A stretch of DNA of 31,539 nt, taken from a virus (lineage: Duplodnaviria > Caudoviricetes). A model generated the notes under the pieces. The model ran no database searches. It had not been told where the DNA came from and worked only from the letters and a program-made list of their open reading frames with translations. Both the position numbers and the translations under genes were made by a program. Location of the stretch: IMG/VR virus record IMGVR_UViG_3300027887_000006, positions 1 to 31,539 of that record; one strand, given 5' to 3'. Positions 541-31,440 of this stretch are shown one piece after another (the stretch's first letter is position 1; each line of letters opens with the position of its first letter).

Positions 541-2770
541 ATTCAGCCTCTAGTGCCTTATCTCTCAATGATACAAGATCATCAAGGATTTTCCCTTTTT
601 CGGCATTGGCTGAATTGATGGCATCGGCAATCACTTGATCGGCTTTTTTCTTTGCCTCATCCAGAATCCTTGCCGAATCTTGATCGATTTTTTCCTTTGA
701 TTCGATCTCTTTCTTTTTCAATTCTTGATCGACCTTTTTCATTTCAGCTTTCAGATGAGCATCGACTTGATTGAACATGGTGAAAGTAACCTCATCACCA
801 GTGAACCAATCAAGAGAGCATCGACAATTCGGATGTTCAGGTGGTGCGGATGATCCATTCGAGAAAGTAGCATTGAGCGGAATGACCCCATCCGATTCAG
901 CCGAGAGACAAGTCTCATCGACCAGATCATCACCAGCAGTTAGCCAGGATTTCCCGACCACGACTCCCGATTGTCTAGCACCCTCAAGCGATCCCTCTTC
1001 ATAGCCTTTCAATACCTCTGTCCGAGCGATTCTTTCAGCCCGATTGACAGGAGTATCAGTCAATTCAGATAGATCATCAGCGATTTCAGCGATTGATTTC
1101 CCCTCATCGACCCCAGCCGAGATGATTCCCCTCATCTCCTCTTTGACAGTATCATTGATTTTCTTAGCAGAATCGAGTCCATTTTGATTGATCCAATTGA
1201 CAGCTCTTTCAGTCCCAGTCGAGAACTCTGCCCCAGCATCGAGTTTGTCAGCGAGTTGTCTGAAAGTATCAGCCCCGCCCCGAGCCATTGAGACAGTCAG
1301 AGCATCATCGGTTTCCGATTCAATTTGATGAATGTGATCATCATTCCCGACAAACATAATCCGAATCAGATCATCCTTTCGAGACTTTCTGACTCCCTTG
1401 ATTCCCGATTCTTTGAGATTTGAGATCACATCCCGAATGATTGAATTGATAATCTCATCATATTTTTTCTCTCTCTTTTTGATTTGAGCGACTACCCATT
1501 TCACCCGATCATTAGCGATTGAGAATATGGCTTTCTGCCGGGGTGATAGGTGCTTTTTGACAGCCTTAGATTGAGTGGTAATGACAGCACCGAGAGGCAT
1601 AGCGTTGAGAGGGATGAGAAGCGAATCCCCATTCTCAATGGGTGGTAGTCCCTCTTCTGCCCGAACCTCATTAGGAGTCATCCAAGCCGATCCGAGAGTG
1701 AGTGAGGCAGTATATTTTCGAATCTCCTGATCTTCATTTTCAGGGACAGGATCATCAAAAGAGAATCGCCATTCCCGATCATCCATTTTGAATAGAGGGA
1801 GAAGCGACTCATTCAGCCTATCGACAAGAAAGGACATTCTGGGTTTGATCACTCTTTTGGCGAAAACATAGTCCCCAGTTTCAGCATTTGCCCGATTCAC
1901 ATCATCCGATATGCCGAGAATAGTCTTAGGTATTCTGAATATAGCCAGGATTTCATCTCTCGAGAACTTTCTCTGTTCGAGAAATTGCATATCCTTTTGA
2001 GATAATCCGATAGGTTGATAGTCCAGTCCATTCTGTAAGATAGCCAATCGATGAGCATTTTGAGTGCCAGTATATCTTGAGTCCCATTCAGCCTTGATCC
2101 TTTGGAATTGTTCATCAGTCAATTCACCAGAGGTTTTGAGTACAGCCGAGGGAACGGCAGCATTGAAAAAGAAATTGCGATTGAATTGAGCCGAATAATT
2201 ATCGATGTCGATAGCGACAGCCGATGCTTGTACAGTCCCCATCCCCCGAAAGCGATTGAGAGGATTGAACTTTTTGAAATGGATGATCTCATCAGGAGTG
2301 AAAGGGACAGCCTCTCCCTTTTGATTGGTATAGATATAACCCGAGACTACCTTATCCTCGGAAGTCGAAAGGGTAACTCGGTTAGGGTAGAGAGTCCATA
2401 TCTCCCCAGGTTTCCCAGTAGCCTCACCTTTTGGTAAGTACCAAAAAGCGTTGCCATCCAATTCAAGAAAGGATTGAGTCTGAATAATCAGATCAGAAAA
2501 GGTATCGAATTGATTGGTATTCTTGAGAAGATCAAGCACCATATTCTGTTGAACCGATACCCAGTCCCCATGTTCGAAGTGTTCCAGCTCTAATTCGATG
2601 GTAGCCACATCATCAGCGATAGCATTGACACAAGTATAGACCCATGAGGTATAGCTCTTGAGGTAATCATCCGATTTCATATCGGGTGCGACTTGAGAAT
2701 AAGCCATCCCGAATATCCGAGGATTCACGATTTTTTCAAACTTAGGGCGAAAGAAATCAAGTATTCCCAT
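524..2770 (-). CDS. HK97-family portal protein fused to a MuF/SPP1 gp7-like head morphogenesis domain and a C-terminal coiled coil
   Basis: Portal motifs (LELDGNAFW, EIIHFK, FFFNAAVPSAVL, MTPNEVRAEEGLPP) are followed by MuF motifs (RAERIARTE, KSWLTAGD, PPEHPNCRCSL). Lies downstream of TerL. Confidence 0.93.
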   Translation of the reverse strand: MGILDFFRPKFEKIVNPRIFGMAYSQVAPDMKSDDYLKSYTSWVYTCVNAIADDVATIELELEHFEHGDWVSVQQNMVLDLLKNTNQFDTFSDLIIQTQSFLELDGNAFWYLPKGEATGKPGEIWTLYPNRVTLSTSEDKVVSGYIYTNQKGEAVPFTPDEIIHFKKFNPLNRFRGMGTVQASAVAIDIDNYSAQFNRNFFFNAAVPSAVLKTSGELTDEQFQRIKAEWDSRYTGTQNAHRLAILQNGLDYQPIGLSQKDMQFLEQRKFSRDEILAIFRIPKTILGISDDVNRANAETGDYVFAKRVIKPRMSFLVDRLNESLLPLFKMDDREWRFSFDDPVPENEDQEIRKYTASLTLGSAWMTPNEVRAEEGLPPIENGDSLLIPLNAMPLGAVITTQSKAVKKHLSPRQKAIFSIANDRVKWVVAQIKKREKKYDEIINSIIRDVISNLKESGIKGVRKSRKDDLIRIMFVGNDDHIHQIESETDDALTVSMARGGADTFRQLADKLDAGAEFSTGTERAVNWINQNGLDSAKKINDTVKEEMRGIISAGVDEGKSIAEIADDLSELTDTPVNRAERIARTEVLKGYEEGSLEGARQSGVVVGKSWLTAGDDLVDETCLSAESDGVIPLNATFSNGSSAPPEHPNCRCSLDWFTGDEVTFTMFNQVDAHLKAEMKKVDQELKKKEIESKEKIDQDSARILDEAKKKADQVIADAINSANAEKGKILDDLVSLRDKALEAEYEIKK

Positions 2771-2808
2771 ATATACCCATTGTAAATTGATTGACAGCGA
2801 TTCTTATA
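2768..2808 (-). promoter_or_regulatory. Structural-gene (late-type) leaderless promoter of portal
   Basis: TATAA(2808-2804)-N19-TACAAT(2784-2779)-GGGTATAT-ATG, with the same spacing as five other copies. Confidence 0.75.
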
Positions 2809-2811
2809 TAG

Positions 2812-2859
2812 AAAAAAGACTGGACACGATTCCCTATGGTGAGAGAGTCCTGTCCAGGT
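2812..2859 (-). ncRNA. Candidate ~48-nt hairpin sRNA or terminator
   Basis: CUGGACA...UGUCCAG stem with inner pairs, loop CACCAU and a U6 tail, starting right after a TTGCTT-N17-TATTAT promoter. Confidence 0.45.
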
Positions 2860-2865
2860 GATACT

Positions 2866-2894
2866 ATAATAGGCACGATTGATATCAAAAGCAA
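2866..2894 (-). promoter_or_regulatory. sigma70-type promoter carrying the TTGATATCAA box (2879-2888)
   Basis: TTGCTT-TTGATATCAATCGTGCC(17)-TATTAT. Confidence 0.55.
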
Positions 2895-2922
2895 AAAAGA
2901 GGGGGAGATTTCTCTCCCCCCC
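2893..2922 (-). terminator. Intrinsic terminator after the 79-aa gene
   Basis: GGGGGAGA-GAAA-TCTCCCCC stem with GNRA loop, followed by TCTTTTTT on the minus strand. Confidence 0.8.
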
Positions 2923-2929
2923 GATCTTG

Positions 2930-4735: not shown

Positions 4736-5212
4736 CTATTTCTCCCCCTGATTTCTTATAGGATCATTATCATTGACGATTTCTCCCTCTGGTGATGGTA
4801 ATTTCTTGATCTTTCTCCTGGTAGCCACGATCTCCCGAAGTAAAATGACCCCCTCTTCAACGGGAGTGATGTCCTCAATCTTTTGAACCTTAGCGAACTC
4901 ATCCCCCTCATTTCTCTCGAGCCAATCGATAGATGTCTTGACATCACCCGAATTGATAGCCGACACGATGTTTCGTCTAGCGACCACATTTGGGAGAGTC
5001 CTCTCACGCTCTAATTTCTTTCGAAAATCCTCATCGGACTGACAATACTCCCAGAGCGAGGTATAAGGTACTTCTCCCATGAGAGCCGATTTGTAGATAG
5101 AATATCCGAGCTGTAAGAATGGTTGTAATTTTCTGAATGTCTCAACTAGATCAATCGGTGGTCTCCCCAGCCTCTTGAAATCCTTAGGGTCTTTCCGAAT
5201 ATATTTGCTCAT
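4736..5212 (-). CDS. Probable terminase small subunit
   Basis: Directly upstream of TerL; GRP motif, HTH-like segment and WLER motif typical of TerS. Confidence 0.7.
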   Translation of the reverse strand: MSKYIRKDPKDFKRLGRPPIDLVETFRKLQPFLQLGYSIYKSALMGEVPYTSLWEYCQSDEDFRKKLERERTLPNVVARRNIVSAINSGDVKTSIDWLERNEGDEFAKVQKIEDITPVEEGVILLREIVATRRKIKKLPSPEGEIVNDNDPIRNQGEK

Positions 5213-5970
5213 ATCCCCCGAATAGGTACTCGAATAATAGGATTGATATCGATATGCCGAGTCTTGTCAGTGTTATGAGACCTTGAGACACCATCATCAT
5301 ATTTGACGATTTTTGATCCCCATTTTTTTCGGAGTAAATCGAGCTGTTTTTTCTCCTCTTCAAAAGTCCGATAGGTAGAGCATCCCCCCGATTGTTCGAC
5401 CTGTCTAACCATGAGAAAGAACTTGTTGAGCCTCAATACCTTGCGATATTTGTTACAGTGTTGAAGTGTCATGTCGTAATCCTCTTTGAGCGGTAGTGAT
5501 TCATCATAGCGAATATCAGAATCGATATGAGCTTGAAATGGTCCACCAATATAAGAGGTGAGTGAGAAAGGGGTATATTCTCGGTAAGCCTGTTTGTCAG
5601 TAGTGATATTGACTCCCCAGAGTTTGACCCCGAGATCGATAGCCATGACCGAATACTTGAAGAGAAATCTCATGACCTCATTTTCATCATTGAGATGATG
5701 GACAGTTTCATCCTCATAATACCAGATGTATTTGAGATCATCATCCAAAATCACCACGATATTGCCGGGGTTATGATCGAGAATATAGTTTCGAATCCGA
5801 CAGAGATTTCCCTGATATTGAGGATCGACCCCGATGATATCAGCCCCAGGATTCTCTCTCTGATAATCTGACAGCTCTTCATTTGAGACATAGACCGAGG
5901 CATGGGGAAGATAGTCGAGGGTTTCGACTTTTGGTCGATGATAAGATGGAATACAGACTTTGATTTTCAT
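5209..5970 (-). CDS. TAGT/GREB1-like GT-A fold glycosyltransferase (putative DNA base modifier)
   Basis: IPSYHR start, RNYILD, LDDD metal motif, KEDYD and GGC motifs; located between ParB-like and TerS genes. Confidence 0.75.
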   Translation of the reverse strand: MKIKVCIPSYHRPKVETLDYLPHASVYVSNEELSDYQRENPGADIIGVDPQYQGNLCRIRNYILDHNPGNIVVILDDDLKYIWYYEDETVHHLNDENEVMRFLFKYSVMAIDLGVKLWGVNITTDKQAYREYTPFSLTSYIGGPFQAHIDSDIRYDESLPLKEDYDMTLQHCNKYRKVLRLNKFFLMVRQVEQSGGCSTYRTFEEEKKQLDLLRKKWGSKIVKYDDGVSRSHNTDKTRHIDINPIIRVPIRGI

Positions 5971-6620
5971 TGATCCTCGCCTCTGACTTTCTTGATGAAC
6001 TCGATCCCATTGACTACTCTCCCGACTCCCATTTTTTCGAATCCCTCTTTTGAATCAAGAGCCTTGACAGTCTTGAGTGGATAGACCGATTGAAGATAGA
6101 GCCAGTCGATATCATTGTTGAAATATAGCACCACATAATTTTGAGACTCGTATAACTCCTCACTGAATTGAATCTCGGGTTTGATCTCTTCTGGTGATGG
6201 TCGATACCGATCCAGAAGCTCATTGATTGAGGTAGATTTTGACAGATTGACCTTGAAATCTTTGAGAGAATCAGCATACGGAAGCGATAATTCAGCCAGT
6301 TTGTCAGCCTCGGTATGTCCAGCCTGATCATTATCCGAGAGAGCGATCTTCAATCTCTCCTGATCATTCTGACATTCGACTTGACTGACCCAGACTTTTT
6401 CGAAGCCTAGAGACCGATAAGCCCGAAGCCTCATATTCCCCCCGATCACAGTCAGATTTTGATCGACAATGAGCGGTTTGTATTGAGCATTTTCGACCCC
6501 CTTGATCTTTGACAGCTCTTTGATCTGACTGACCAGCCTCTCAAACTCCTCTTTGGTAATCCCTCTGGGATTCTTATCCCAGTTTTTCACTTGATCGATA
6601 GATACCCATTTGTTACTCAT
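5967..6620 (-). CDS. ParB/Srx N-terminal domain protein
   Basis: NPRGI, PLIVD...VIGGNMRLRA and ALSDN motifs; translationally coupled to the glycosyltransferase by an ATGA overlap. Confidence 0.85.
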   Translation of the reverse strand: MSNKWVSIDQVKNWDKNPRGITKEEFERLVSQIKELSKIKGVENAQYKPLIVDQNLTVIGGNMRLRAYRSLGFEKVWVSQVECQNDQERLKIALSDNDQAGHTEADKLAELSLPYADSLKDFKVNLSKSTSINELLDRYRPSPEEIKPEIQFSEELYESQNYVVLYFNNDIDWLYLQSVYPLKTVKALDSKEGFEKMGVGRVVNGIEFIKKVRGEDQ

Positions 6621-7074: not shown

Positions 7075-7107
7075 TGATTCGAATATATCATCATTCAATA
7101 TCAATGG

Positions 7108-9155: not shown

Positions 9156-9409
9156 TTTTTCTTAGCTTTCTTGAATGACTCCTCTTGAGCTTTCATATTC
9201 ATGACAGCGAATTGTTCCATTGAATTGACCAGACCATCAGCCATGAGATCATAGAGATGAGACATCTCAATTTTCCCCCGAGCCTCGATCATCAAAAGGG
9301 CACAGTCGAGTTTTGAATCGCACTCATGATCCATCCCGACAATGACATGATTATCTTGATGATCCAGCACATCGATATGGACAGTGTATCTCTTATTTGG
9401 TTTTTTCAT
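9152..9409 (-). CDS. Hypothetical protein; probable start MKKPNK at 9409
   Basis: RBS GAGGGGG before ATG 9409; ATGA overlap with the resolvase gene. Confidence 0.65.
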   Translation of the reverse strand: MKKPNKRYTVHIDVLDHQDNHVIVGMDHECDSKLDCALLMIEARGKIEMSHLYDLMADGLVNSMEQFAVMNMKAQEESFKKAKKK

Positions 9410-9815
9410 TTTCCCCCTCTTTCTTTTTTGAGACAGTGATTGAGACATAATCCGATTGACTTTGAATCACCCCATCAAGCTCATTCCCATCATTGATCAA
9501 CTTATTGATAACAGGTCTCATGTATTCAAGATCGAGAGTATAGACCAGCTCGACATCCCATTTCTTGAGATCAGCCTCGAGAGCTTTCTTATTCTCGACT
9601 TTGATATTGATCCTCTTTTTTCGAGCGATCAGATAGTCCTTAGTCTTGAGAGTCAAGACATCGAGTTTGTCCATCTCAATCAATAACTGGTCTTTGAGAG
9701 CCTTGAGTTTTGAGTCGATATCTTTTTGAAGCACCGACAGTTTGATGATCTGATTCGATATCTCGATAGGAGTGAGCGGATCAGAGGATTTCAGATTCGT
9801 TTTTTCGAGTTTCAT
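9393..9815 (-). CDS. Gp157/Gam-like coiled-coil protein; probable start 9815
   Basis: N-terminal coiled coil followed by short beta strands; lies near the ERF gene; RBS GAGGA. Confidence 0.55.
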   Translation of the reverse strand: MKLEKTNLKSSDPLTPIEISNQIIKLSVLQKDIDSKLKALKDQLLIEMDKLDVLTLKTKDYLIARKKRINIKVENKKALEADLKKWDVELVYTLDLEYMRPVINKLINDGNELDGVIQSQSDYVSITVSKKKEGENEKTK

Positions 9816-9975
9816 AATAGTCCTCACATTCTAATTGATAGCCACATTTTCGACATTGAAAGACCACCGATTCCGATTGACCATGACCATGAGGATAACT
9901 AGGATCAAACCAATCCGAGACCACCTCGACCAGCTCAAACTCATGATCTTGACCTTTCAATCTACAACTCGGCAT
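9781..9975 (-). CDS. 64-aa Zn-binding small protein; probable start MPSCRL at 9975
   Basis: C..H...CRKCG motif; start overlaps the end of the ERF gene. Confidence 0.55.
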   Translation of the reverse strand: MPSCRLKGQDHEFELVEVVSDWFDPSYPHGHGQSESVVFQCRKCGYQLECEDYYETRKNESEIL

Positions 9976-10546
9976 TCGGACAGCCTTTCTTGTGATATCT
10001 CCCGACAGCACCACAGACAGCACAAGCCCCAGGAGAGACCGAAGCCCGAGGGTTTTTGATCCAGTCAGGATCACCATCAGGATCAGGATTCGAGGGTGGA
10101 TTGACCTTTCTCGGGGGCATAGCAGTCTCGGCATCATCGTCCGAATCAGCCATAGTCAGAAGCGACTTGAGCGAGTATCTCCTAGCATAAGTCAGAGCCG
10201 ATCCTTGAGCTTGAGGATCATTCTCTCGAGCGGTAGTGATTTTCATTTTTGATGAGATAGCCTCACCATTCACATGAATAATAGTAGTACAGACATAGAC
10301 TCCCCCCTCATCCGATTCGATGGGTTGAAGCACGATCAGATTATTCTTATTCAGAGCTTTCTTACAAGCCTCGATTGAAGCCGAAAGCGAAGCATAATCC
10401 GATTTGTAGAAAGGATTTTTTTCATCCTTTTTGACCATCTCAATTTCAGTTTGAGCTTTCAATAGGTCTTTGAACATTTCTTGTCGATTGGTATATCGAA
10501 CCTGACTTGGATCGATAGCAGTCTCGACAGATTTTTCATCTGACAT
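9962..10546 (-). CDS. erf: ERF-family single-strand annealing protein with C-terminal Zn knuckle; probable start 10546
   Basis: KNPFYKSDYASL, QAQGSALTYARRYSL and DSDDDAE signatures; RBS GAGGAG. Confidence 0.9.
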   Translation of the reverse strand: MSDEKSVETAIDPSQVRYTNRQEMFKDLLKAQTEIEMVKKDEKNPFYKSDYASLSASIEACKKALNKNNLIVLQPIESDEGGVYVCTTIIHVNGEAISSKMKITTARENDPQAQGSALTYARRYSLKSLLTMADSDDDAETAMPPRKVNPPSNPDPDGDPDWIKNPRASVSPGACAVCGAVGRYHKKGCPNAEL

Positions 10547-10580
10547 ATAGAGGTTCTCCTCACTATTTTGATATATTTTG

Positions 10581-10609
10581 ATTCTACTTGGTATTGATAT
10601 CAATATCAA
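10581..10609 (-). promoter_or_regulatory. sigma70 promoter of erf with TATTGATATCAATA palindrome
   Basis: TTGATA-TTGATATCAATACCAAG(17)-TAGAAT. Confidence 0.75.
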
Positions 10610-11597: not shown

Positions 11598-11626
11598 AAA
11601 AATCCCCCAGCGAGATGCCGGGGGAT
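11598..11626 (-). terminator. Intrinsic terminator after the 67-aa gene
   Basis: AUCCCCCGGC-AUCUC-GCUGGGGGAU followed by a U tract; contains one CCCCGGCA octamer. Confidence 0.7.
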
Positions 11627-13025: not shown

Positions 13026-13460
13026 TCAATGAAGAGATCGAGAATCGAGGGATTCCCGATCTTTTGCTTGAATGAAAACAGGGTTATATAAGACATTTGT
13101 TTTTGTAACCATGAAAGCCTGATCCCTTTTGACTCCTAGAAAGATCAATCTCCTCACTTGAGACGCTTTCTTATGGGTAAGATATCGGTTTTTGAAGTAG
13201 TAATGCCATAGCCTATGACAAGATGAACACAAAATCATGAGGTCTTTTTTCATCTCTCTACCGAGAAGAGACCCAGGATCAATTGGAATTGATAACCTTT
13301 TTCCAGATAACCTAGCCTCTTTTTCACCGATCCAATATCTTTTGTGATGAACCACAAGAGATTCTCTTGAATCACATATTTGACAATGATCACAGTCGGC
13401 TAATTTTTCTGATCTCAATTTTTTCCAATGATTCGATTGTAAATAGTTTTTGTAATCCAC
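13026..13460 (-). CDS. HNH endonuclease-family protein (GTG start)
   Basis: YLQSNHWKKLR, CQIC, LVVHHKRY and LCSSCHRLWH motifs. Confidence 0.85.
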   Translation of the reverse strand: MDYKNYLQSNHWKKLRSEKLADCDHCQICDSRESLVVHHKRYWIGEKEARLSGKRLSIPIDPGSLLGREMKKDLMILCSSCHRLWHYYFKNRYLTHKKASQVRRLIFLGVKRDQAFMVTKTNVLYNPVFIQAKDRESLDSRSLH

Positions 13461-14376: not shown

Positions 14377-15201
14377 TCATTTTTCCTTTTTGAAAAAATC
14401 CCAGATTGTCTTTTTCTCGAGCTTATCGACTCTCAATTTCAATGATTCCAATTCAGCCGACAATACCTCACAGCAGTCAGGGACAGGATCGACCACAGGT
14501 GGGGCAGGAGTAGGTGGTACAGGAGTCGGTTCAGGAGTAGGGGGAATCGGTTGAGGAGTAGGATCAGGAGTTGCCGGGGGAGTAGGGACAGGGACTTGAT
14601 ATCCATATCTCATGAAAGCCAATTGATCACCAAAAAAGACATCCCCATCGGTTTTCGCAGGGATACCAGGGACAGTTTGAGCATTAGTCCATTGTTGAAT
14701 CGAAGCGAATGACCATGATCCAGTAGCGAAAGTATTGTTTCGAGGATCACCAGTATAGGCAGCGATCCACAGCCCGAACCCAGCATTTGAAACATTCGAC
14801 CAGTTGTAATTCTTGACCAGCGATTGATTCAGATAGATGAGCGGTTTGACATTGGTTTTCGAATAGACATGATTGAGCCAAGTCTTACACCAGCCGACCA
14901 CATCCCCAGTATAAGTATCTTCATAATCAAGACACAGCCATTCACCAGCTTGAAGAGTCCCGATCTTTGAGAGATAGAAATCAGCCTCACTTTCAGGGCT
15001 ATTCCCTTTCGATGGTCTAGCGAAGTGGTACGAACCATTCAAGAGACCGACTCTCCTAGCCTCTGATTGATTAGTTTTGAATTGAGAGTCGAGAAAGTTT
15101 ATTCCCTCGGTAGCTTTCGAGATAACAAAATTGGTGTTGTTCTTATACACATTGAAATCAATGATCCCCTGCCAGTGAGATATATCATTTCCGAGTAACA
15201 T
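14377..15201 (-). CDS. GH25 muramidase endolysin with Pro/Thr linker and C-terminal coiled coil
   Basis: GNDISHWQG, KATEG, GSYHFARP, LDYE, LWIAAY, QQWT and DGDVF motifs. Confidence 0.93.
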   Translation of the reverse strand: MLLGNDISHWQGIIDFNVYKNNTNFVISKATEGINFLDSQFKTNQSEARRVGLLNGSYHFARPSKGNSPESEADFYLSKIGTLQAGEWLCLDYEDTYTGDVVGWCKTWLNHVYSKTNVKPLIYLNQSLVKNYNWSNVSNAGFGLWIAAYTGDPRNNTFATGSWSFASIQQWTNAQTVPGIPAKTDGDVFFGDQLAFMRYGYQVPVPTPPATPDPTPQPIPPTPEPTPVPPTPAPPVVDPVPDCCEVLSAELESLKLRVDKLEKKTIWDFFKKEK

Positions 15202-19674: not shown

Positions 19675-20507
19675 ATTCCGTAATAGTGATCCCGAGCGAT
19701 AATTTGACAGTTGCCCCCGATCACCGATGAGCCGAGCCGAATGACATTAGCACCAGGGGGCAAGACCCAGAAATCACCCGAAGCATACTGTCTGCCATTG
19801 AGAGCGGTAATATATGGATCAATCAAGACAGTCCTCAAGAAAGTATCGACCAGAATCTTGTTTGATCCCGAAGCCAGTGAATAGGATATATTGAGCGTTT
19901 CACCAGTGGTTACATTCATGAGCGAGGGATTTTGAAGCGGTCCAGTGAATAGAAATTGAGGATATGCCGGGGCATTTCCCCCCTGATTGATAGTGATCTC
20001 ATTCGATCCCCCACCCCCCATGTCCATCGGAATGATCATAGGGATAGCCATTCCCCCCCCACCATAGACATAAGCGGTAGAGGTTACAAGAAATTGATCT
20101 TGTAAGAAAGGATATTCGGTTTCCATCTCGATACGATAGACCGATGAAATAGTCTCTCTCGAATCAATATCCGAAGTGATATCGACTCCCTTGATAGCGA
20201 TTTGAAGATCAGTCCCATTATCTTTATTGATGAAGAGAGTTTGAGTCCCAGCATTGAGAGCATCAGCGATCAGAGCGGTGAAAGTCTCTCGAGCGGTAGC
20301 CAGTCCCGAGAAAGTAGTCGATCCGATAGTGAACTCGAGAGCGAACTTATATGAGGCGAAGTTTGATGGTGAGACCGATTGACCCCCGAATCCAGCCTTT
20401 CGAGTAGCCGAGTATTGAATGAAAGGGAATGATAGATTTTTGATCGAGGTGAGAATCCGATCATTAGCATCCAATTGAGTAGTGTTGAGAAAAATAGAGG
20501 TGATCAT
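19671..20507 (-). CDS. Distal tail protein (Dit)
   Basis: Follows the tape measure gene; NQGGNAPAYPQFLFTGPLQNP and FWVLPPGANVI motifs. Confidence 0.8.
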   Translation of the reverse strand: MITSIFLNTTQLDANDRILTSIKNLSFPFIQYSATRKAGFGGQSVSPSNFASYKFALEFTIGSTTFSGLATARETFTALIADALNAGTQTLFINKDNGTDLQIAIKGVDITSDIDSRETISSVYRIEMETEYPFLQDQFLVTSTAYVYGGGGMAIPMIIPMDMGGGGSNEITINQGGNAPAYPQFLFTGPLQNPSLMNVTTGETLNISYSLASGSNKILVDTFLRTVLIDPYITALNGRQYASGDFWVLPPGANVIRLGSSVIGGNCQIIARDHYYGI

Positions 20508-22738
20508 CGGCTATTCCTTAGAGCGAAAGCGACACGATCTCCCAAAAGATTCATGTCCAGTGAATCATTCACATTCGCCTGTATATTGATAGGTTGATTG
20601 AATACTTGTTCGACAGATGAGGGGACAGATTTTCGACCTTGAAGCATATCGGTTGAAGCGACAAACTCTCCCCGATGGAGAAGTGCCAATCCAGTTTGAG
20701 GCACGAATCCCCCCTCTTGAAAGGATTGAACATTCATTTTGCCGACAGCGATATCCGCAGCCTCTCTCGCCTTATTGATGAGCGATTGAAAGGTAGTGAT
20801 CACTCCCTCAATGATCCCTTTGACAAAATTGAATCTCTCGACCCACTTATTGACCCATGCTTCACCGATTGAAATCAATGAATCGAAAGCACTAGAGAAG
20901 ATGGGGACAATAGTATCTTTGAACCAATTGACGAATATATTGATCACATTCTTGATGAAATTGATTTGAACCATCCAGAGATTGACCCAGACCATCACGA
21001 TTGATTTCAAGACCTCGAACCCAGCCGATAGGACAGGGACTACATTCGACATGAACCATGAGGCGAATTGTTGAATCAAAATCCATATTCCCTGAAAGGC
21101 GATCATCCATGCCGAAGCCCAGATTTGAACCAGCGACATGAGGAGAGCGAATATGCCTTGAAATATGGGTAACAGATATGTAGAAAACCAATCGACAAAA
21201 GGTTGAACCACCAGCATGACAGCTTGAAAGCCGAGAATGAATCCATCGACAAGAGATTGGAGAAAGACTTTGATCATATCGAAAGCGGTCATGATTCCAG
21301 GTAATACAGTCCCAGAAAACCAAGCGACAAAAGCCCCGACTTTTTCTTGAATCCCAAACCAGTTTTGAGTCCAGGCAAGAGTCAGAAGAGCGATCAATCC
21401 GATAATAGCCCCGATGATCAGAGTCAATGGGCCACCAAGTACAGCGACCACCGCCCCGATAGCCGATCCGACCCCAGCGAATATAGTCCCGATCCCAGCG
21501 AATACTCCCGACAATGCACCGACAGCGGTGATGATCGAGCCGATAGATGAAATCAGAGTCCCGACAATCACTAGCACAGGTCCGATCACAGCCAAAAAAG
21601 CCCCGAATGCGACAATGGCAGTCGAGACTTTGGGATCGAGATTTGAAAACCAAGTGGCGAGTTTGTTGATTGAATCAATCACCGACATGATAGTAGGTCT
21701 CATTTTGTCGAATATATCAAGCATAGTTTGACCCAGTGGTTGAAGTGCGAGGGTAACTTGATTTTTCATTTGAGCCATTCTTTCATTGAAGCTCATAGTG
21801 TTAGCGGAAGTTTGATCCAGCACTCCCCCAGCATTTTCAAGAGCCTTGACCATTGAATCGATCTCGAAAGTCCCAGCCCTGATTTGACCAGCGAGTTTGT
21901 ACCCAGCTCTAGCACCGAATAAGTCAGAAGCGATTGAGACAGCCTCGAGATCAGTAGGGGCTTTTTTGATCTTCTCGATATAACTATTGAGAGCCTCTTC
22001 TGCCGACTTGAATCCCTTTGATGATAGATTCGATAAGGCTCTCCCCATCGACATCATCACCTCTTCTGGTTTAGCACCAGATTTTTCAAGTTGTGCCAAA
22101 AGAGCGATTGTTTGAGTAACAGAAAATCCGAGTGTCTTGAATGCCGGGGCAGAATCAGCGACCATAGTGGCGAGATTCCCAGCATTAGCACCAGATTTTT
22201 GAGAAGCGAGAGTCAATTGATCGAGATACATATTGAGATCAGCGACATTCCCACCAGTAGCTTTCAGCATCCGACCCAGACCCTCGACAGCACTCGAGGC
22301 ATCGATCTCATTCACCCGAGCGAAAGTCAAGACAGCTCTTGAGGCAGATTCCAATTCTCCCCCAGTGAGACCCAGCCTTTGATTCAGTCCCTTGATGGCA
22401 TCAGCGATATCACCGAAAGATTGAGTTGCCGACATTCCGACATCTTTCAAGACTCCCTGCATCTCGAGCATAGCATCACCCGAGACCCCAGTCCCAGCCA
22501 CGATTGAATCCATAGCCTCATCAAACTGATTCCCAGCGATAATGGCAGCAGACCCGACAGCAGTCAGAGGGAGAGTGAGTCCCATCGTCATTGATTTTCC
22601 TAGAGATGAAATTGATCCCCCGACATTCTTGAACTTTTTGTCTAGTCCCTCGACAGTAGTCCCCACCCCATCCAGCACTTTTGAAGCATCATCTTGAGCA
22701 GAAATCACCACTGATAATTCTTTGGAATCGAAAGCCAT
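20504..22738 (-). CDS. Tape measure protein (TP901-like core)
   Basis: ISAQDDAS start, GKSMTMGLTLPL, and Ala/Gly helices with W/F-periodic repeats. Confidence 0.92.
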   Translation of the reverse strand: MAFDSKELSVVISAQDDASKVLDGVGTTVEGLDKKFKNVGGSISSLGKSMTMGLTLPLTAVGSAAIIAGNQFDEAMDSIVAGTGVSGDAMLEMQGVLKDVGMSATQSFGDIADAIKGLNQRLGLTGGELESASRAVLTFARVNEIDASSAVEGLGRMLKATGGNVADLNMYLDQLTLASQKSGANAGNLATMVADSAPAFKTLGFSVTQTIALLAQLEKSGAKPEEVMMSMGRALSNLSSKGFKSAEEALNSYIEKIKKAPTDLEAVSIASDLFGARAGYKLAGQIRAGTFEIDSMVKALENAGGVLDQTSANTMSFNERMAQMKNQVTLALQPLGQTMLDIFDKMRPTIMSVIDSINKLATWFSNLDPKVSTAIVAFGAFLAVIGPVLVIVGTLISSIGSIITAVGALSGVFAGIGTIFAGVGSAIGAVVAVLGGPLTLIIGAIIGLIALLTLAWTQNWFGIQEKVGAFVAWFSGTVLPGIMTAFDMIKVFLQSLVDGFILGFQAVMLVVQPFVDWFSTYLLPIFQGIFALLMSLVQIWASAWMIAFQGIWILIQQFASWFMSNVVPVLSAGFEVLKSIVMVWVNLWMVQINFIKNVINIFVNWFKDTIVPIFSSAFDSLISIGEAWVNKWVERFNFVKGIIEGVITTFQSLINKAREAADIAVGKMNVQSFQEGGFVPQTGLALLHRGEFVASTDMLQGRKSVPSSVEQVFNQPINIQANVNDSLDMNLLGDRVAFALRNSR

Positions 22739-23356: not shown

Positions 23357-23385
23357 AATCTATCACCGATTGATATCAATGGCAA
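23357..23385 (-). promoter_or_regulatory. sigma70-type leaderless promoter with TTGATATCAA box
   Basis: TTGCCA-TTGATATCAATCGGTGA(17)-TAGATT-N6-ATG. Confidence 0.7.
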
Positions 23386-23387
23386 GA

Positions 23388-24499: not shown

Positions 24500-24537
24500 A
24501 TACCCTCATTCTATTATGTTACTTGGTAATCGTTATA
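24497..24537 (-). promoter_or_regulatory. Late-type leaderless promoter
   Basis: TATAA-N19-TAGAAT-GAGGGTAT-ATG. Confidence 0.8.
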
Positions 24538-24547
24538 TATTTTTCAA

Positions 24548-25431: not shown

Positions 25432-25434
25432 AGG

Positions 25435-25764
25435 TCAATTTCCCTCTACTTTTTCACCGACCATCTGTTGATATTTCAAGACAGTAGTCGAGACTTTTTG
25501 AACATCCCCCCGAATGATGAAAGTCCCCAGCGATCCGACCAGCTTATCCCCATTTTTGATCAGTCCCATTTCATAGACAAAAATCTCATTGAGAGTATAT
25601 GAGGATTCACCAGGATAGACAGCGAGAATGTCCGAACCCGCAGGCATTATTTGAGCCTTGATCCCAGTGAATGCCGGGGTAGCGGAGTATGCCTCTTTGT
25701 CCCCAGTCCGAGTCAATCGATAGATCGAGACAGTATCATTGGTGAGTAGAAATCCTTGAGCCAT
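25435..25764 (-). CDS. Head closure/stopper protein
   Basis: Size and position; IKNGDKL motif. Confidence 0.7.
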   Translation of the reverse strand: MAQGFLLTNDTVSIYRLTRTGDKEAYSATPAFTGIKAQIMPAGSDILAVYPGESSYTLNEIFVYEMGLIKNGDKLVGSLGTFIIRGDVQKVSTTVLKYQQMVGEKVEGN

Positions 25765-26345
25765 TATTTTGGTTCCAATCGGTAACGAATAAGAGCATCA
25801 TAAGCATAAGACGGAATATAGATGCCATTAGCGAATACCGATTGTTCAGTCTGATCATCCTTGAACTCTACCGACACCGATCCAGCGGTAAATCTCTTCA
25901 ACTCCTCTTCTGATACCGATCCCGATCCGAGTCCAGATGATTCAAGGGACTGACTCCCCCACCTGATCAGCGACTCTTTCAAGTCTTTTGGTACAGTATT
26001 CGAGGTGGTGTATTTGATCGACACATTTTGAAAACCGAAGAGAGGGGCATCATCAATCTTGACATAGTGATGGTAATTGTAATACTCATCCGATCCGAGA
26101 ATCGAGCCATCGACTTTCACCTCTTTGATTTGAGAGATGGGAATCTCTCTGACAAAAAAAGTATTGAAGCCACCATCAAAAAGCTCGGTTATATCCCCAG
26201 TGGCATCAAAAGTCCGATTGCAAAAGTTTCGAGCATATTGAGAAATCGAGGGAATGATCTGGTTATCAAGTAGAGTCCCTTGATCCGAGGTCAGTGTAAT
26301 CCCCATGTAAGATGCGACATCAGCTTTCAAAAATAGATCAGCCAT
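25764..26345 (-). CDS. Head-tail adaptor (gp6/gp15-like); probable start MADLF at 26345
   Basis: DVASYMGI, NFCNRTF and VPKDLKES motifs; the start is fixed by the late promoter. Confidence 0.8.
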   Translation of the reverse strand: MADLFLKADVASYMGITLTSDQGTLLDNQIIPSISQYARNFCNRTFDATGDITELFDGGFNTFFVREIPISQIKEVKVDGSILGSDEYYNYHHYVKIDDAPLFGFQNVSIKYTTSNTVPKDLKESLIRWGSQSLESSGLGSGSVSEEELKRFTAGSVSVEFKDDQTEQSVFANGIYIPSYAYDALIRYRLEPK

Positions 26346-26383
26346 ATATCCCCAGTATAACAAGCGAGGGATCAGGTCTTATA
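26343..26383 (-). promoter_or_regulatory. Late-type leaderless promoter
   Basis: TATAA-N19-TATACT-GGGGATAT-ATG. Confidence 0.75.
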
Positions 26384-26385
26384 TG

Positions 26386-26613
26386 TTATTTTTTCTTAGG
26401 GGATTTTTTGATCATCTTATCGACAGGGGCTTGATCGATATTCTTTTTTTCATCAGGCGATTCGACAGCCTTGATCTCCCCAGGAGTAGCCGACAATTTT
26501 TCAGCCAGTCCAGCCTTGACATACTTATCAGCCAGTTTTGATTCGAATCCAGCGACATCACCTATCTTGTAAGGTAATGAGTTTTGAGTGAATCTGATCC
26601 CGACATTTGCCAT
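26386..26613 (-). CDS. 75-aa post-capsid small protein; probable start MANVG at 26613
   Basis: RBS AGGAG; YKIGDVAGF...A..YVKAGLAE pattern common in genes following the major capsid gene. Confidence 0.7.
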   Translation of the reverse strand: MANVGIRFTQNSLPYKIGDVAGFESKLADKYVKAGLAEKLSATPGEIKAVESPDEKKNIDQAPVDKMIKKSPKKK

Positions 26614-26646
26614 ATATTGAATCTCCTGACTATTTGATATCAATCC

Positions 26647-26699
26647 TGACTCCTATTCTCTAACCCTAGTGTTATTCACCGCTAGAGAATAGAGAGTCA
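26647..26699 (-). other. Strong hairpin after the major capsid gene, followed by a TTGATATCAA box (26634-26643)
   Basis: TGACTC-CTATTCTCTA / TAGAGAATAG-A-GAGTCA inverted repeat. Confidence 0.65.
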
Positions 26700-26708
26700 A
26701 TTTTGAGC

Positions 26709-27791
26709 TTATTTGACACCACTCAAAAGGTAGAAAGATTCAGGTAAGGTCAATTGACCATCCAATCTTTCCCACATTTTCATGGCGACTTGATGATATT
26801 CGAATGCACCAGCACCTTGAGTCGTAGTCTCGACAGACATAGATTCACGATCACCGATCACATAGTAGGAGAGATCACCGAAAAAGACTTCGGATTCATC
26901 TAACCCAGTGCCGAGATTGGTGGGGATATCATTCTGTTCAAGTACAGGGCGACCCAAAATACTCGCAGGGGCATCAGTCAGACCATCAGTCCATAAGTAC
27001 CGACCAGAAAGATCGATAAGTTTTCGGACAGTCGGGAAGATTGAGTTGTTCATGATCCAGACAGCATTTCTGCGATATTGAGAGGGAAGTGCATAGAATA
27101 AATCGATCAGATCATCAGCCTTGAGACTTGCACCAGCTTGAGGGATAGAGGGTAGAGTGTAGGTTCTGATTCCCGTAGGTTCAGTAGTACCAGCACCAGC
27201 CATGAATCCAGCATCTTCTGCTTGAGCAAACTTTCTTGCCCAGAGAGAGGTCAGATAGTCCATGATATTCACAGCACTATCAGCGAATAACTCTCGAGAC
27301 ATTTTTGAAAGCCCAGTCAATTTGTTAGTGTTCAGAGTCAATGAATCGAAAGTGGGATTTGATTCGACTAGGACAGCATTTTCAGCTTTCCAGTAGGTCG
27401 TAACCGATGTAGCCTCGGCAGGTAAATCCATCTTATCTCGACTCATGGGGATCACAGTAGCTCTCGGGCGAATGACCGCCTCTTTGAGCAATTTTTCAAT
27501 GACCACAGCTCGGAACTCTTTAGGTACAAGGTAGCCACCATCAGCATCAGTGCCCTCGGATAATGCTTTCGCAGTTACGAGATCACCGAATACGATTGAC
27601 TTCATGAATGATGCGATCCTTTGAGTCTTAGTCAGACCTTTGAGAGCATCACCATTTTCATCTTCTTTTGTAGGGAAGATGCCATGTTTCCGATCAACTT
27701 TATCGAGACCCATCTCTCGGATTTTAGCATCAAACATTTCACCGAGTTTCGTCTCGAATTGTTCCATTGTCAATTCTTTTTTGTCATCCAT
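26709..27791 (-). CDS. HK97-fold major capsid protein; probable start MDDKK at 27791
   Basis: ADGGYLVPKEF, SRELFADS, GTTEPTGI, ILGRPV, FFGDLSYY and ERLDG motifs. Confidence 0.95.
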   Translation of the reverse strand: MDDKKELTMEQFETKLGEMFDAKIREMGLDKVDRKHGIFPTKEDENGDALKGLTKTQRIASFMKSIVFGDLVTAKALSEGTDADGGYLVPKEFRAVVIEKLLKEAVIRPRATVIPMSRDKMDLPAEATSVTTYWKAENAVLVESNPTFDSLTLNTNKLTGLSKMSRELFADSAVNIMDYLTSLWARKFAQAEDAGFMAGAGTTEPTGIRTYTLPSIPQAGASLKADDLIDLFYALPSQYRRNAVWIMNNSIFPTVRKLIDLSGRYLWTDGLTDAPASILGRPVLEQNDIPTNLGTGLDESEVFFGDLSYYVIGDRESMSVETTTQGAGAFEYHQVAMKMWERLDGQLTLPESFYLLSGVK

Positions 27792-27860
27792 AGATATATT
27801 TTTCAACTCCTTTCAGATTCTCTTATCAGGCAAGATGTGCGGATACTATGTCCAGATCAT

Positions 27861-29015
27861 CTATGACTTAGTGCTTTTGTAGTTTTTGAGGGCGAGACCG
27901 ATAGTCCTATCAGCCATTTTCAGCCCCTGCACTAGATCAATAACCATTTTGGTTTTTTCATCAGTTTCGACAGCTTTTTCAGCCATCACCAGCATCTCAA
28001 GATTTGAGACCAGGTCTTTGAGATTGACAATGACATCAGCCATCATCTTTCGAGTCTTAGTATCGACCACATATCTAGGTTCAGTCATGTCTTGAATCTC
28101 CTCTTTGATTTCATCAGGGAATAATTCTTTCAATTCAGATTCAGAATATGCTCTCATTTCAGGGGCATCTTTTTCAAACTCGGCATAATGTTTTGAAAGA
28201 TGAGCATAGACTCCCTCTCGGTCAGATTCAGGTAGATCGACTCCCCCTCTTGCCCCCATCAATGCACCCATGGCAGCCGATACTCCCATCCAGACAGTAT
28301 AGAGATCAGAAGCCCGATGGTGAGGTAGCTTATATGAGGATTTCACATCAGTATTTTCAGAGTCAAACCAGGTTGCCATTTCTTTGAGTTGTTCAGGAGT
28401 AGCACTAGCGATTTCTTTTGCCCCATCCCAAGCTGTTCCCTCTTCTGCGAGTGGATGAGCCTTGAACGGTACGACAGATTTCACAGTTTCATCAGCGATT
28501 TCTTTGACAGACTCAATCGATTTGACCACGCCTTTTTCATCGACATCGAATCCTTTTGATCGAAGCATGGTCAGAGCCTCGGGATTATCTGGTACAAGTA
28601 CAGCCGAATACTCGAGCAATTCCCACTGGGTAAAATCTTTCCCACCTTGATCATTTGGAGTAGCGGATTTGGGAATGAAGCCGATAGACCAGGCATTCAT
28701 GAATCCCCCCTTGTAGAGATCATAGACAGTATCAGCGAGAGGATAGACACCACGATCAGGGAATCGAACTTTTGCCATGATCCGATCATCATTGATTTCA
28801 AGCTGTTCAGTCTTAGCAATCGGTAAGCCTTGATAGTTATGATTCAGAGCGACAACAGGATTTCGGAGATAGGCTTCAATGTCAGCACCGCCAGGATCGA
28901 CTACATCATGAGACCGATCAGGATTCATAGTGGAGATGGTAACGATCAGAGATCGATCCTCATCCCCCTCTTTGGTTTCAACAGCCTCAAAAGACTTTCG
29001 AATGGTTTTTGCCAT
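27861..29015 (-). CDS. HK97-family prohead protease with an extra central domain and scaffold-like tail
   Basis: DRSHDVV, LNHNY, WSIGF and ELLEYSAVLVPDNPEA motifs. Confidence 0.92.
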   Translation of the reverse strand: MAKTIRKSFEAVETKEGDEDRSLIVTISTMNPDRSHDVVDPGGADIEAYLRNPVVALNHNYQGLPIAKTEQLEINDDRIMAKVRFPDRGVYPLADTVYDLYKGGFMNAWSIGFIPKSATPNDQGGKDFTQWELLEYSAVLVPDNPEALTMLRSKGFDVDEKGVVKSIESVKEIADETVKSVVPFKAHPLAEEGTAWDGAKEIASATPEQLKEMATWFDSENTDVKSSYKLPHHRASDLYTVWMGVSAAMGALMGARGGVDLPESDREGVYAHLSKHYAEFEKDAPEMRAYSESELKELFPDEIKEEIQDMTEPRYVVDTKTRKMMADVIVNLKDLVSNLEMLVMAEKAVETDEKTKMVIDLVQGLKMADRTIGLALKNYKSTKS

Positions 29016-29053
29016 ATACTCCTATTCTATGTAATGATTGCTAATTTCTTATA
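29013..29053 (-). promoter_or_regulatory. Late-type leaderless promoter of the protease/capsid genes
   Basis: TATAA-N19-TAGAAT-AGGAGTAT-ATG. Confidence 0.8.
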
Positions 29054-29078
29054 TATTTTCCGATTGATATCTATATAG

Positions 29079-29252
29079 TCATTCAGATAATTGTTTTCGA
29101 AAAAGAGCGAAAGCCTTGGTGGTAGTATTTTGAAACACAGCCACGAACTCCCAGCCCTGTAAGCCTTGAGTATTCAAGACAGCGGTGAGGGTGGTTTCAG
29201 TAACAGTCGAGGGATTGAATTGTATGACCTTATGATCATATTTGAGAGCCAT
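29079..29252 (-). CDS. 57-aa DUF4177-like protein (not in ORF track)
   Basis: YDHKVI...LNTQGLQGWEFVAV...FRK pattern; RBS GAAAGGA. Confidence 0.65.
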   Translation of the reverse strand: MALKYDHKVIQFNPSTVTETTLTAVLNTQGLQGWEFVAVFQNTTTKAFALFRKQLSE

Positions 29253-29265
29253 GATTTGATCCTTT

Positions 29266-29550
29266 CTATATAGGGTTATTCGTTAGTAGGTAGAGATCGT
29301 AGTGATCACCAGAGTCAATTTCTTTGACATCGACCCAAGTGAGAGGAGAAGCGATAGCCGATTTGAATTGAGCATAGGTCAATTGAGTGGTGAAAGTAGT
29401 TTCAGCGATCACCACATCCGATATTTTTTCAGTCGAGGATTGATGAGTCGAGGTATAGTCAGATAGGTCAGCATTATTTTGACTGACATTCAATCCATAT
29501 ATATGAGAGGTATTAGTGAATAGAGTGGTTTGATAGAGATATAGTGCCAT
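29266..29550 (-). CDS. 94-aa hypothetical virion-accessory protein
   Basis: Fits the tiling of the head operon. Confidence 0.7.
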   Translation of the reverse strand: MALYLYQTTLFTNTSHIYGLNVSQNNADLSDYTSTHQSSTEKISDVVIAETTFTTQLTYAQFKSAIASPLTWVDVKEIDSGDHYDLYLLTNNPI

Positions 29551-29553
29551 AGA

Positions 29554-30183
29554 TCAAGACTCCTCATACATGAATAAGAACCAGGTGAATTGTAAGTCCT
29601 GTTGAAGATTATTGGTAACTCTGACCACATATTTTGTCCCCGATTTCAAAATGATTTCATAGGGAGTGGTATAAGACGGAGAGACATAGGTTTCCCAGTC
29701 AGTATGCACCATATACGAATAGAGAGGAGTGCCGAGATTGGTAATGACAGGAGTCAAAAAGAAAGACGATGAGCAAGTATTCGAAGAGTTGCGATCATTA
29801 TTGAATGGAGTGATTGAAGAGCCATCACTTGAGGTAGTAACCCCAGCATTGAGCGACATCGAGACATAACCCGAAGCCGAGTTTCGAAGCACATTGACCG
29901 AGACATCCCGAAGCGATAATTTCACCGAAGCATGAGTCGAGATCAAAATATCATAGTTTGTATTTTTGACCAGAGTCAGCACCGATCCCGAGGTGAGCGA
30001 GTAGGCTTTCCCGATGTGAATAGCCTCATGTTCAGGAGTCAATACAGGTATTTCAACGCCAGTCCCGATCTCTGAAATCTTTGAATCGACCTTGAGCCGA
30101 TTCTCATTAGTAACATCAGCCGAATTGACCCCATCCGAGGCGAAAATAGTAACATCATCAGTCGGTTTGTTTATGTCAGCCAT
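29554..30183 (-). CDS. 209-aa beta-rich virion-accessory protein
   Basis: Ser/Thr-rich; C-terminal IILKSGTKYVVRVTN strand pattern. Confidence 0.75.
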   Translation of the reverse strand: MADINKPTDDVTIFASDGVNSADVTNENRLKVDSKISEIGTGVEIPVLTPEHEAIHIGKAYSLTSGSVLTLVKNTNYDILISTHASVKLSLRDVSVNVLRNSASGYVSMSLNAGVTTSSDGSSITPFNNDRNSSNTCSSSFFLTPVITNLGTPLYSYMVHTDWETYVSPSYTTPYEIILKSGTKYVVRVTNNLQQDLQFTWFLFMYEES

Positions 30184-30210
30184 AGTTTCAATTTTCTTTC
30201 AGGATACCAG

Positions 30211-30245
30211 TGAGAGAGCATAGACTCAATGTCTATGCCCCCCCA
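30211..30245 (-). other. Intergenic RNA hairpin (15 bp with G-U pairs on the minus strand)
   Basis: UGGGGGGGCAUAGAC-AUUGA-GUCUAUGCUCUCUCA. Confidence 0.6.
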
Positions 30246-30257
30246 TCAGGTAAGAGT

Positions 30258-30875
30258 CTATATTTCGTTGCCATTGATGAAGCCATAGACATCCGCATTG
30301 GCATTATCTTTGTTGGTAAGTATCAATAGCACTTTATCACCAGCGACCACTTCAATGGGTTGAGGGAATGTAACCTCGACAGTCCCAGAAGCGGTAGAGC
30401 AGAAAGCGACAGCCCGAGTGGTTTCCGATGAGGGAGTCCCAGCTTTCAATTCAGCCTTTCCCTTACCAGAGAAAGCACATTGAAACGCCTTGAGTTGTAG
30501 AGTTTTCCCAGTGGTAACAGTATAAGAGACCACAGTGTTCGGAGTCCCAGGTACACCAGCCGAGGCAGTCCCATATTCATGAACCTCTGCACCAGCGACA
30601 GCATCGACCACATTGACATTGATCGAACCATCACCATTGATCACCAGATCATCAGTACCATCCCAGATTTGAATCTTGGTAGCAGGGTCAAAAATGACAC
30701 TCAATTCCCCATTTGATCCGATAACTAGAGCATTAGTGCCATCGTTGAGATTGACTTGACCGATACCATTCGAATCGATAGACCATTGATTTGCCCCAGT
30801 GCTATCAGAGATCGAAGCGACCACATCAGCATTTGCCTGGGTACGAATCGGTAAACTAGAATCATAATCAGCCAT
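30258..30875 (-). CDS. 205-aa beta-rich virion-accessory protein (candidate decoration/head fibre)
   Basis: Three internal DG..L.I..DG repeats; C-terminal domain paralogous to that of the 295-aa junction protein; RBS GGGGGTGA. Confidence 0.78.
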   Translation of the reverse strand: MADYDSSLPIRTQANADVVASISDSTGANQWSIDSNGIGQVNLNDGTNALVIGSNGELSVIFDPATKIQIWDGTDDLVINGDGSINVNVVDAVAGAEVHEYGTASAGVPGTPNTVVSYTVTTGKTLQLKAFQCAFSGKGKAELKAGTPSSETTRAVAFCSTASGTVEVTFPQPIEVVAGDKVLLILTNKDNANADVYGFINGNEI

Positions 30876-30878
30876 ATA

Positions 30879-31109
30879 TTATTTTTCACCCCCTTTCAAT
30901 TTTTCAATATCCTCTATATCTTGAGGAGTCTGATCAATAGCCTCTTTGAGTGAGGCGATAGTCTCTCGGTACTTAGCATTTTGAATCTCATTTCTCATGA
31001 TCCCGATTTCAGCCGATAAGAGATGAGCCTTTTGATTGATCATTTGAAGCTCTCTCTCTTTGACTTTGATTTCATTTTCCATTGATTTGATACTAGATTT
31101 CTGATCCAT
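30879..31109 (-). CDS. 76-aa coiled-coil protein
   Basis: Fits the gene tiling; heptad pattern. Confidence 0.65.
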   Translation of the reverse strand: MDQKSSIKSMENEIKVKERELQMINQKAHLLSAEIGIMRNEIQNAKYRETIASLKEAIDQTPQDIEDIEKLKGGEK

Positions 31110-31440
31110 TGAATCCCCCTGTAAAATTATGATTGGTATTTTTTTGATTGGTTACTTTCAGCTCAATGAGATCACCAGCCCCGAGTTTTTTCCCGATATT
31201 CGAATTGACCGATGGACAAGTCCAGGCATTTCTCCCTGACCAGATAGCGGTTGAATTGACATAGAGAATCCAGATTCCATCAGTCCCAGCTTGACCATAG
31301 ACCGATTCGAGAGTGAATGACTTAGCAATAGGGACAGTGTAAGCGGTGATCAGAGTTTCAGTCGAGGGTGATCCAGTGATCGATCCATAGAATTGTTTGA
31401 CAGCCCCGACAGTGCCGGGGGAGATCGATCCGAGAGCATT
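31093..31440 (-). CDS. 3' part of the 295-aa junction-spanning protein (begins at 540)
   Basis: In frame with 540..1 across the terminal overlap; the GTG at 31497 is an internal Val codon. Confidence 0.85.
   Translation of the reverse strand, partial: NALGSISPGTVGAVKQFYGSITGSPSTETLITAYTVPIAKSFTLESVYGQAGTDGIWILYVNSTAIWSGRNAWTCPSVNSNIGKKLGAGDLIELKVTNQKNTNHNFTGGFNGSEI

Follow-up and report, generated by a model that had tools for sequence, protein, structure and literature searches.

Genome and octamer sites

The stretch of viral DNA analysed here (IMG/VR record IMGVR_UViG_3300027887_000006; 31,539 nucleotides (nt), hereafter the window) is a phage genome of the Caudoviricetes in which the tetramer CCGG occurs only inside one octamer, TGCCGGGG. 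The final 99 nt of the window (31441..31539, no strand assigned) repeat bases 1–99 exactly; we read this repeat as the assembly overlap of a circular contig, which gives a phage circle of 31,440 base pairs (bp). Every called gene lies on the minus strand. The 57 open reading frames (ORFs) scanned include genes for an HK97-type portal, protease and capsid, a terminase, a siphovirus tail and a GH25 lysin, together with Erf, a Holliday-junction resolvase, a small HNH protein, a ParB-N protein and a TET-associated glycosyltransferase (TAGT). No polymerase, primase, helicase, integrase or methyltransferase was found among these ORFs, and no exonuclease, replication initiator, TET gene or ParA was found in the phage genome.

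An exact count on the circle gives eight CCGG tetramers, each inside TGCCGGGG on the plus (non-coding) strand, and no plus-strand copy of the reverse word, CCCCGGCA. This agrees with a preliminary description of the same DNA, which had placed CCGG only within the octamer, at 1536, 5763, 11616, 14572, 19965, 22142, 25672 and 31413, and had reported eight copies in the same orientation and none in reverse. All eight CCSGG of the genome also fall within the octamer copies. CCGG and CCSGG are common restriction targets.

The plus-strand copies are spread over the whole gene map. Copy 1 (1536..1543) lies in the portal gene, where the coding strand reads CCCCGGCA in phase 0 (P-R-Q), and copy 2 (5763..5770) in the TAGT gene in phase 2 (N-P-G). 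Copy 3 (11616..11623) is intergenic; on the coding strand it supplies the 5′ side of a terminator-like hairpin (11626-11602), in which the opposite, 3′ side pairs via G-U and contains no second CCGG. Copy 4 (14572..14579) falls in the GH25 endolysin gene, in the part that encodes the proline-rich linker (phase 1, P-P-A), copy 5 (19965..19972) in the distal tail (Dit) gene (phase 1, A-P-A), copy 6 (22142..22149) in the tape-measure gene (phase 1, A-P-A) and copy 7 (25672..25679) in a 109-aa head-closure gene of the head–tail connector block (phase 1, T-P-A). Copy 8 (31413..31420; phase 2, S-P-G) lies in a gene that spans the contig join: the end ORFs, 31093–31440 and 1–540, form a single 295-codon gene on the circle, and both halves are matched by relatives (loci L067 and L073). 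Phases 0, 1 and 2 are used one, four and two times, so the described placement in three codon phases plus one intergenic site stands. Gaps between copies measure 1563–5853 bp, matching the 1.6–5.9 kb given earlier for the circle, at a density of 1 per 3.9 kb or 254/Mb. The distance from octamer to gene start is not fixed (32 to ~1600 bp, from coordinates). We found no RNA fold common to the eight flanks, and no longer palindrome or base-composition halo around the sites.

The sequence is natural, being present in 4 runs from 2012–2017 (one of them possibly the source) with ~40 listed differences in 12.5 kb. Of the 40 differences listed for 19000–31539 in these runs, none falls in copies 5–8, where only ~0.1 is expected, so that this comparison has no power. 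Small compensating insertion/deletion variants occur in three of the four runs at window positions 28498–28503, in the prohead protease gene.

Selection for one DNA word

The octamer is a real and statistically extreme feature. Across null models, 0.01–0.3 copies are expected, against eight seen. Codon shuffling of the 54 coding sequences (CDS; 60 shuffles) yields a mean of 0.083 copies and a maximum of 1, against 6 in the genome, and the expectation for CCGG in the same shuffled CDS is 62, against 6 seen. Under a strand-specific order-3 Markov model, the octamer (8 versus 0.01; log10 P −19.2) leads all 8-mers by a wide margin; the next distinct 8-mer in that ranking reaches log10 P −8.2 and is confined to one codon phase. 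The earlier chance estimate was less than one copy per strand. The 24 one-mismatch variants of the octamer total one copy in the same orientation.

The preliminary description had proposed that selection acts on the DNA rather than the protein, despite CCGG avoidance, and our analysis supports selection on the DNA word in one orientation. Among silent-encoding opportunities in the proteome, CCCCGGCA is used at 7 of 15 and the reverse word at 0 of 22 (Fisher P 6e-4). At all seven coding sites, CCGG-free encodings built from words used elsewhere in the genome are available (2–22 per site). Of the 20 Pro-Gly pairs, 18 are written CCT-GGN and the other two are octamer copies. In relatives, the aligned residues differ at most octamer sites, and the octamer stands at the aligned place in none.

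The 8:0 polarity is by itself weak evidence, because every gene shares the same strand and one-strand words are numerous; the opportunity test is the better support for polarity. Spacing is more even than that of random points (P 0.008 for the coefficient of variation (CV), 0.005 for the largest gap) and modestly more even than that of random choices among coding opportunities (P 0.022 for the CV, 0.054 for the largest gap and 0.042 for the smallest gap). We read TGCCGGGG as a probable recognition site: exact, placed on one strand around the whole genome, and maintained by selection where CCGG is otherwise purged.

Avoidance of restriction-like words

Avoidance in this genome is broad. TTAA, ACGT, GCGC and CGCG are absent and GGCC occurs once, and gapped words are depleted as well (GGNNCC 1 versus 69 expected, GCNNGC 1 versus 31, CGNCG 0 versus 47). 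The pentamers missing from both strands number 54; of two complete relatives, one lacks 16 and the other none. GATC escapes this avoidance (383 versus 396 expected). Several words are one-sided on the coding strand (CAAAT 91, ATTTG 0; GGAAA 82, TTTCC 0), and ATTTG, CTTTG, TTTCC, GAACT, GGAAG and TGGAG are the pentamers missing from the coding strand only. Absence of words from one strand is a pattern produced by Type III restriction (PMC3874151). The overall pattern suggests passage through hosts with many restriction–modification (R-M) systems, some of them Type III-like. Given the words missing from a single strand, polarity as such is nothing unusual in this genome; the peculiarity is that one context of a purged word is present in excess.

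The octamer in related loci

Searches with TerL, portal, lysin and capsid gave 307 related loci (3.5 Mb, with some redundancy and many distant members); L080, the window's own record, was left out of all counts. With identities of up to 69% for capsid and 67% for TerL, these loci contain 35 forward and 40 reverse octamers and no comparable pattern. Of the relatives, G405 and G407 are complete and syntenic; they have one copy and none, respectively, and neither showed a strong frame-independent motif of its own. Conservation in related phages and hosts, whose lack the preliminary description had named among the outcomes that would refute its reading, appeared in none of those reached, a comparison outside which lie the true host and the nearest relatives, known as proteins with 79–80% TerL identity. 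Cultured phages reach at most 30% TerL identity. The unpublished genomes G004 (with locus L076) and G555 enter the tallies as rows, and we base no claim on them alone.

Homologs of the ParB-N protein occur in 44 related loci and homologs of TAGT in 6, none with the octamer pattern; neither protein therefore tracks the octamer. The HNH protein had no tblastn match in the fetched related loci and no match in the PDB. Locus L327, with 2 forward octamers among 5 CCGG in 4.9 kb, was rejected as a carrier of the pattern, being expected by chance among 307 loci. A distant TerL relative (L143:367-18740) carries AGCGCGTG in a 6:0 ratio. As GCGCGTG is the Chi of Lactococcus, this locus may belong to a phage in which genuine host Chi sites are present. 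A literature search, with subscription papers and supplements outside its reach, found no paper containing TGCCGGGG or CCCCGGCA as a whole word.

The probable host and its chromosomes

TerL and capsid homologs at 61–67% identity lie in records named Levybacteria, Daviesbacteria and Woykebacteria. One homolog sits on a 107-kb contig and belongs to a prophage, given the housekeeping genes on both flanks (glyS, rsmH and murE; ileS and rodA). From these matches, the host is likely to belong to the Microgenomatia, ultra-small Patescibacteria. A Levybacteria contig (L380:80-4311, in G002:C2) also encodes a methyltransferase and a BPTD_3080-family restriction gene beside a tyrosine recombinase, near a related prophage.

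We examined the octamer on the chromosomes of 401 class and 301 phylum genomes (~685 distinct; counts not corrected for GC content). The highest density read from the tables for these Patescibacteria genomes is ~117/Mb, against 254/Mb in the phage. In the single-contig genomes G144 and G211, strand counts of 67/18 and 0/11 looked supportive of a polar host signal and were rejected, as they follow the one-way GC skew and the order-3 Markov expectation (71/20 in G144; 12 on the G-rich strand of G211, where 11 are seen). The regions sampled in these two genomes were chosen for containing sites, and whole-genome counts were hence compared with scaled expectations. One-way GC skew is a trait reported for some Microgenomates (PMC7143001). 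The octamer in G090 is found 10 times on the leading and 6 times on the lagging strand. Genomes G156, G072, G225, G521 and G658 had high ratios of target to control, a control word that contains GGCC; inspected by eye, none of them was cleanly polarised contig by contig.

The recombination machinery of the class was surveyed as well. RecC was found in none of 61 host-class genomes, and ADDB_N matches, present in 20 of the 61, are weak (best E 5.6e-9) and lie in frames of ~960–1050 aa that are probably fused helicase–nucleases; neither of the two loci inspected has an AddB-sized neighbour. A PcrA-like helicase fused to a PD-(D/E)XK nuclease is present in four of five host-class genomes. Where it could be tested, the octamer is not a host-chromosome signal in the sampled Patescibacteria.

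A polar word of the Microgenomatia

A different word, GTAGGGGA, has the orientation pattern of KOPS (FtsK-orienting polar sequences) on these chromosomes. It points toward a single switch at 44 of 45 sites in G211, 37 of 40 on contig 1 of G090, 15 of 16 in G144, 12 of 12 in G044 and 29 of 33 in G113, in tallies that were counted by hand with switch points picked from the same data. The points on which GTAGGGGA (with GGGTAGGG / GNAGGGGA) converges fall at ~685 kb in G211:C1, ~386.5 kb in G090:C1, ~347 kb in G144:C1, ~510 kb in G044:C1 and ~89 kb in G113:C1. GTAGGGGA/GGGTAGGG strand counts in G090 are 30:2 and 21:1, and in both G211 and G090 the density of GTAGGGGA is higher close to the switch. 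GTAGGGGA overlaps GGGTAGGG, which fits the GGGNAGGG consensus (PMC3384302), and is contig-polarised in G002, the carrier of a related prophage. The FtsK gamma domain is encoded in five of five host-class genomes. TGCCGGGG showed no convergence toward a terminus of the KOPS or SRS (SpoIIIE recognition sequence) type on host-class chromosomes, and GTAGGGGA does not occur in the phage. A simple scan for a dif core found nothing in the phage and nothing in three host regions either, and is hence uninformative.

The two arms of G211 are nearly equal (~395 and ~406 kb) despite a GC skew that runs one way in every one of 18 windows sampled; this speaks against simple one-directional replication of that chromosome. 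Convergence of a KOPS-like octamer under one-way GC skew bears directly on the proposal of one-direction replication in some Microgenomates. Among the papers listed in our literature searches, none dealt with KOPS in Patescibacteria or the candidate phyla radiation; the one match for the latter was an unrelated review.

Other features of the phage genome

The TAGT gene (5209..5970, minus strand; profile matches) and the ParB-N-domain gene (5967..6620, minus strand; ParB_N match E 0.005) adjoin each other and the terminase small-subunit gene; the substrate of TAGT is unexplained, in a genome still purging restriction words. The palindrome TTGATATCAA occurs six times (window positions 2879, 7366, 10594, 11893, 23370 and 26634), at or just upstream of gene starts, and overlaps −35-like boxes in at least three cases. 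It is likely an operator or promoter element, with helix–turn–helix (HTH) proteins at 10927–11343 or 6613–7104 as candidate readers. Ribosome-binding sites upstream of start codons read GGGGGTGA, AGGGGG or AGGAGT, and GGAGG is on neither genome strand. No tRNA or Rfam features were found.

Interpretation of the octamer

We tentatively favour a reading in which the eight TGCCGGGG copies are programmed single-strand nick sites of an enzyme of the phage lineage. Known nick motifs are the best match because the octamer is exact, one-stranded, independent of reading frame, spaced at ~4 kb, lineage-specific and not a host signal. In PMC3517423, the 14 nicks of phage tf (TACT/RTGMC, 46 kb) all fall on a single strand, to which the near-matches are restricted as well, and phiKMV-like nicks lie on the non-coding strand, as does the octamer. 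The Rembedalsseter motif is described in PMC11780129 as 13 copies on one strand, inside and outside coding sequences; the same text states that the function of programmed phage nicks has been unclear for 50 years. With the tf/LUZ24 group, Rembedalsseter, the phiKMV group and T5, our phage would share a short, exact, phage-specific motif on one strand, in and outside coding sequence, at a density (1 per 3.9 kb) close to that of the tf nicks (1 per 3.3 kb). Unlike the sites of tf, Rembedalsseter, phiKMV and T5, the octamer has another sequence and an even spread that is not biased to the ends, and it occurs in a small siphovirus in which no replication genes were found.

Under the nick-site reading, a protein would read the octamer and cut one strand at each copy. 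The reader may be phage-encoded, and the small HNH-type protein (13026..13460, minus strand; Pfam HNH E 1e-4, PHROG HNH E 2e-5) is the sole nickase-like candidate in the genome. The even spacing would suit a genome without fixed ends, as a packaged or entering molecule would always have a site within ~6 kb. Searches of other ORFs for a reader gave only weak HTH or zinc-finger leads, at 7379–7819 and 12022–12663 (Atlas) and 10927–11343 (single-sequence model).

Several points weigh against nick sites. The octamer is known here from assembled contigs, which run across copies 5–8, and no nick was observed. The HNH match is weak, making the protein an enzyme candidate only, and small phage HNH nickases read just 3–5 bp. 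A nick inside CCGG offers no obvious protection from a restriction enzyme. Known nick motifs, in the papers cited above, are group-wide and unevenly spread, whereas the octamer is even and its pattern is absent from the syntenic G405 and G407.

With more doubt, the octamer can be viewed in wider terms, as an evenly paced, one-way 8-bp signal that is kept at the cost of a restriction word and read by an undescribed DNA-processing protein. Such a reader, a nickase or a translocase, could set the pace of genome entry, of packaging or of host-dependent replication.

The main rival, unlikely on balance, is that the octamer is a Chi-like signal of an unsampled host. A helicase–nuclease tamed at TGCCGGGG would shield rolling-circle or terminase-cut ends and feed Erf-driven recombination, and one orientation would be enough if just one kind of end is exposed. 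The octamer resembles the Chi of RecBCD and AddAB in being a polar octamer at a Chi-like density (1 per 3.9 kb, compared with 1 per 5 kb for Escherichia coli Chi), and concatemer-packaging phages over-represent Chi, both as given in PMC3784561. The phage has a resolvase and a recombination block of Erf annealing protein and Gp157-like protein (9393..10609, minus strand; the latter a weak match, E 2e-4), with no exonuclease or replication gene found, and the host class has the PcrA-like helicase–nuclease fusion in a sample of genomes that excludes the true host. Against this, the octamer is not over-represented on the tested host-class chromosomes (the ~117/Mb ceiling, Markov-level counts in G144 and G211, weak skew in G090), RecC was not found and no AddB is clear. 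The host-signal results thus weaken Chi, one of the host signals suggested in the preliminary description, for the Microgenomatia.

We also regard as unlikely, and somewhat more so, a loading or pacing site for another one-way processive process, such as lagging-strand priming, re-loading of an antitermination factor or a DNA-entry motor. With all genes on one strand, transcription, replication and entry share a polarity; the spacing is even, and no replication initiator or primase was found. However, we have no candidate protein and no common RNA fold, and relatives with the same gene order manage without the octamer.

An R-M explanation, improbable in our view, would have the octamer modified on one strand, shielding CCGG there, or would make it a Type III-type site tolerated in one orientation. 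Dozens of restriction-like words are purged, several of them from a single strand, which is what Type III avoidance would give; the octamer is likewise an asymmetric site in one orientation only, as are the 36 EcoP15 sites of T7 (PMC3874151), and the phage encodes a TAGT glycosyltransferase. Tolerance accounts for survival, but not for a ~70-fold excess or for even spacing: Type III tolerance would leave a count at or below neutral expectation, and the CDS hold 6 copies against 0.083. Restriction avoidance with Type III strand bias, as set out in PMC3874151, explains the purged and one-strand-only words and makes no prediction of selection for one context. No methyltransferase gene was found, TAGT homologs occur in loci without the octamer, and the sites have no base-composition halo.

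A KOPS- or SRS-type guide for the host FtsK, as also suggested in the preliminary description, is very unlikely. FtsK gamma is present in the host class, and the octamer resembles the sites of FtsK and SpoIIIE in its polarity and its G run; it differs in lacking the GNAGGG core (PMC3384302). The KOPS pattern in the class is held by GTAGGGGA/GGGTAGGG instead, with no GTAGGGGA in the phage and no integrase found, and the KOPS reading is largely refuted for a Microgenomatia host. The suggested loading site for the ParB-like protein comes out weak: a parS-like role, prompted by the ParB_N match, has little to commend it, as its homologs occur in 44 loci without the pattern and no ParA was found. 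Sites of the parS type are, moreover, longer palindromes clustered near the origin. Chance, or a least-bad codon choice under heavy word avoidance, is hardly credible: forced survivors exist in the genome (E-E and V-T pairs), but log10 P is −19, the copies occupy three phases and an intergenic site, alternatives exist at all seven coding sites, and the Pro-Gly exceptions are octamers.

The octamer is a polarised recognition motif in a phage genome, to which we assign no named family; the new twist is its retention within a restriction word that the genome otherwise purges, so that such a site carries real benefit. It offers eight exact positions in a genome that is small and has few candidates for the reader. 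If it were a host signal instead, it would be the first end-resection control sequence named for Patescibacteria. If the octamer is the signal of an undescribed reader, it would be the first such in a Patescibacteria phage.

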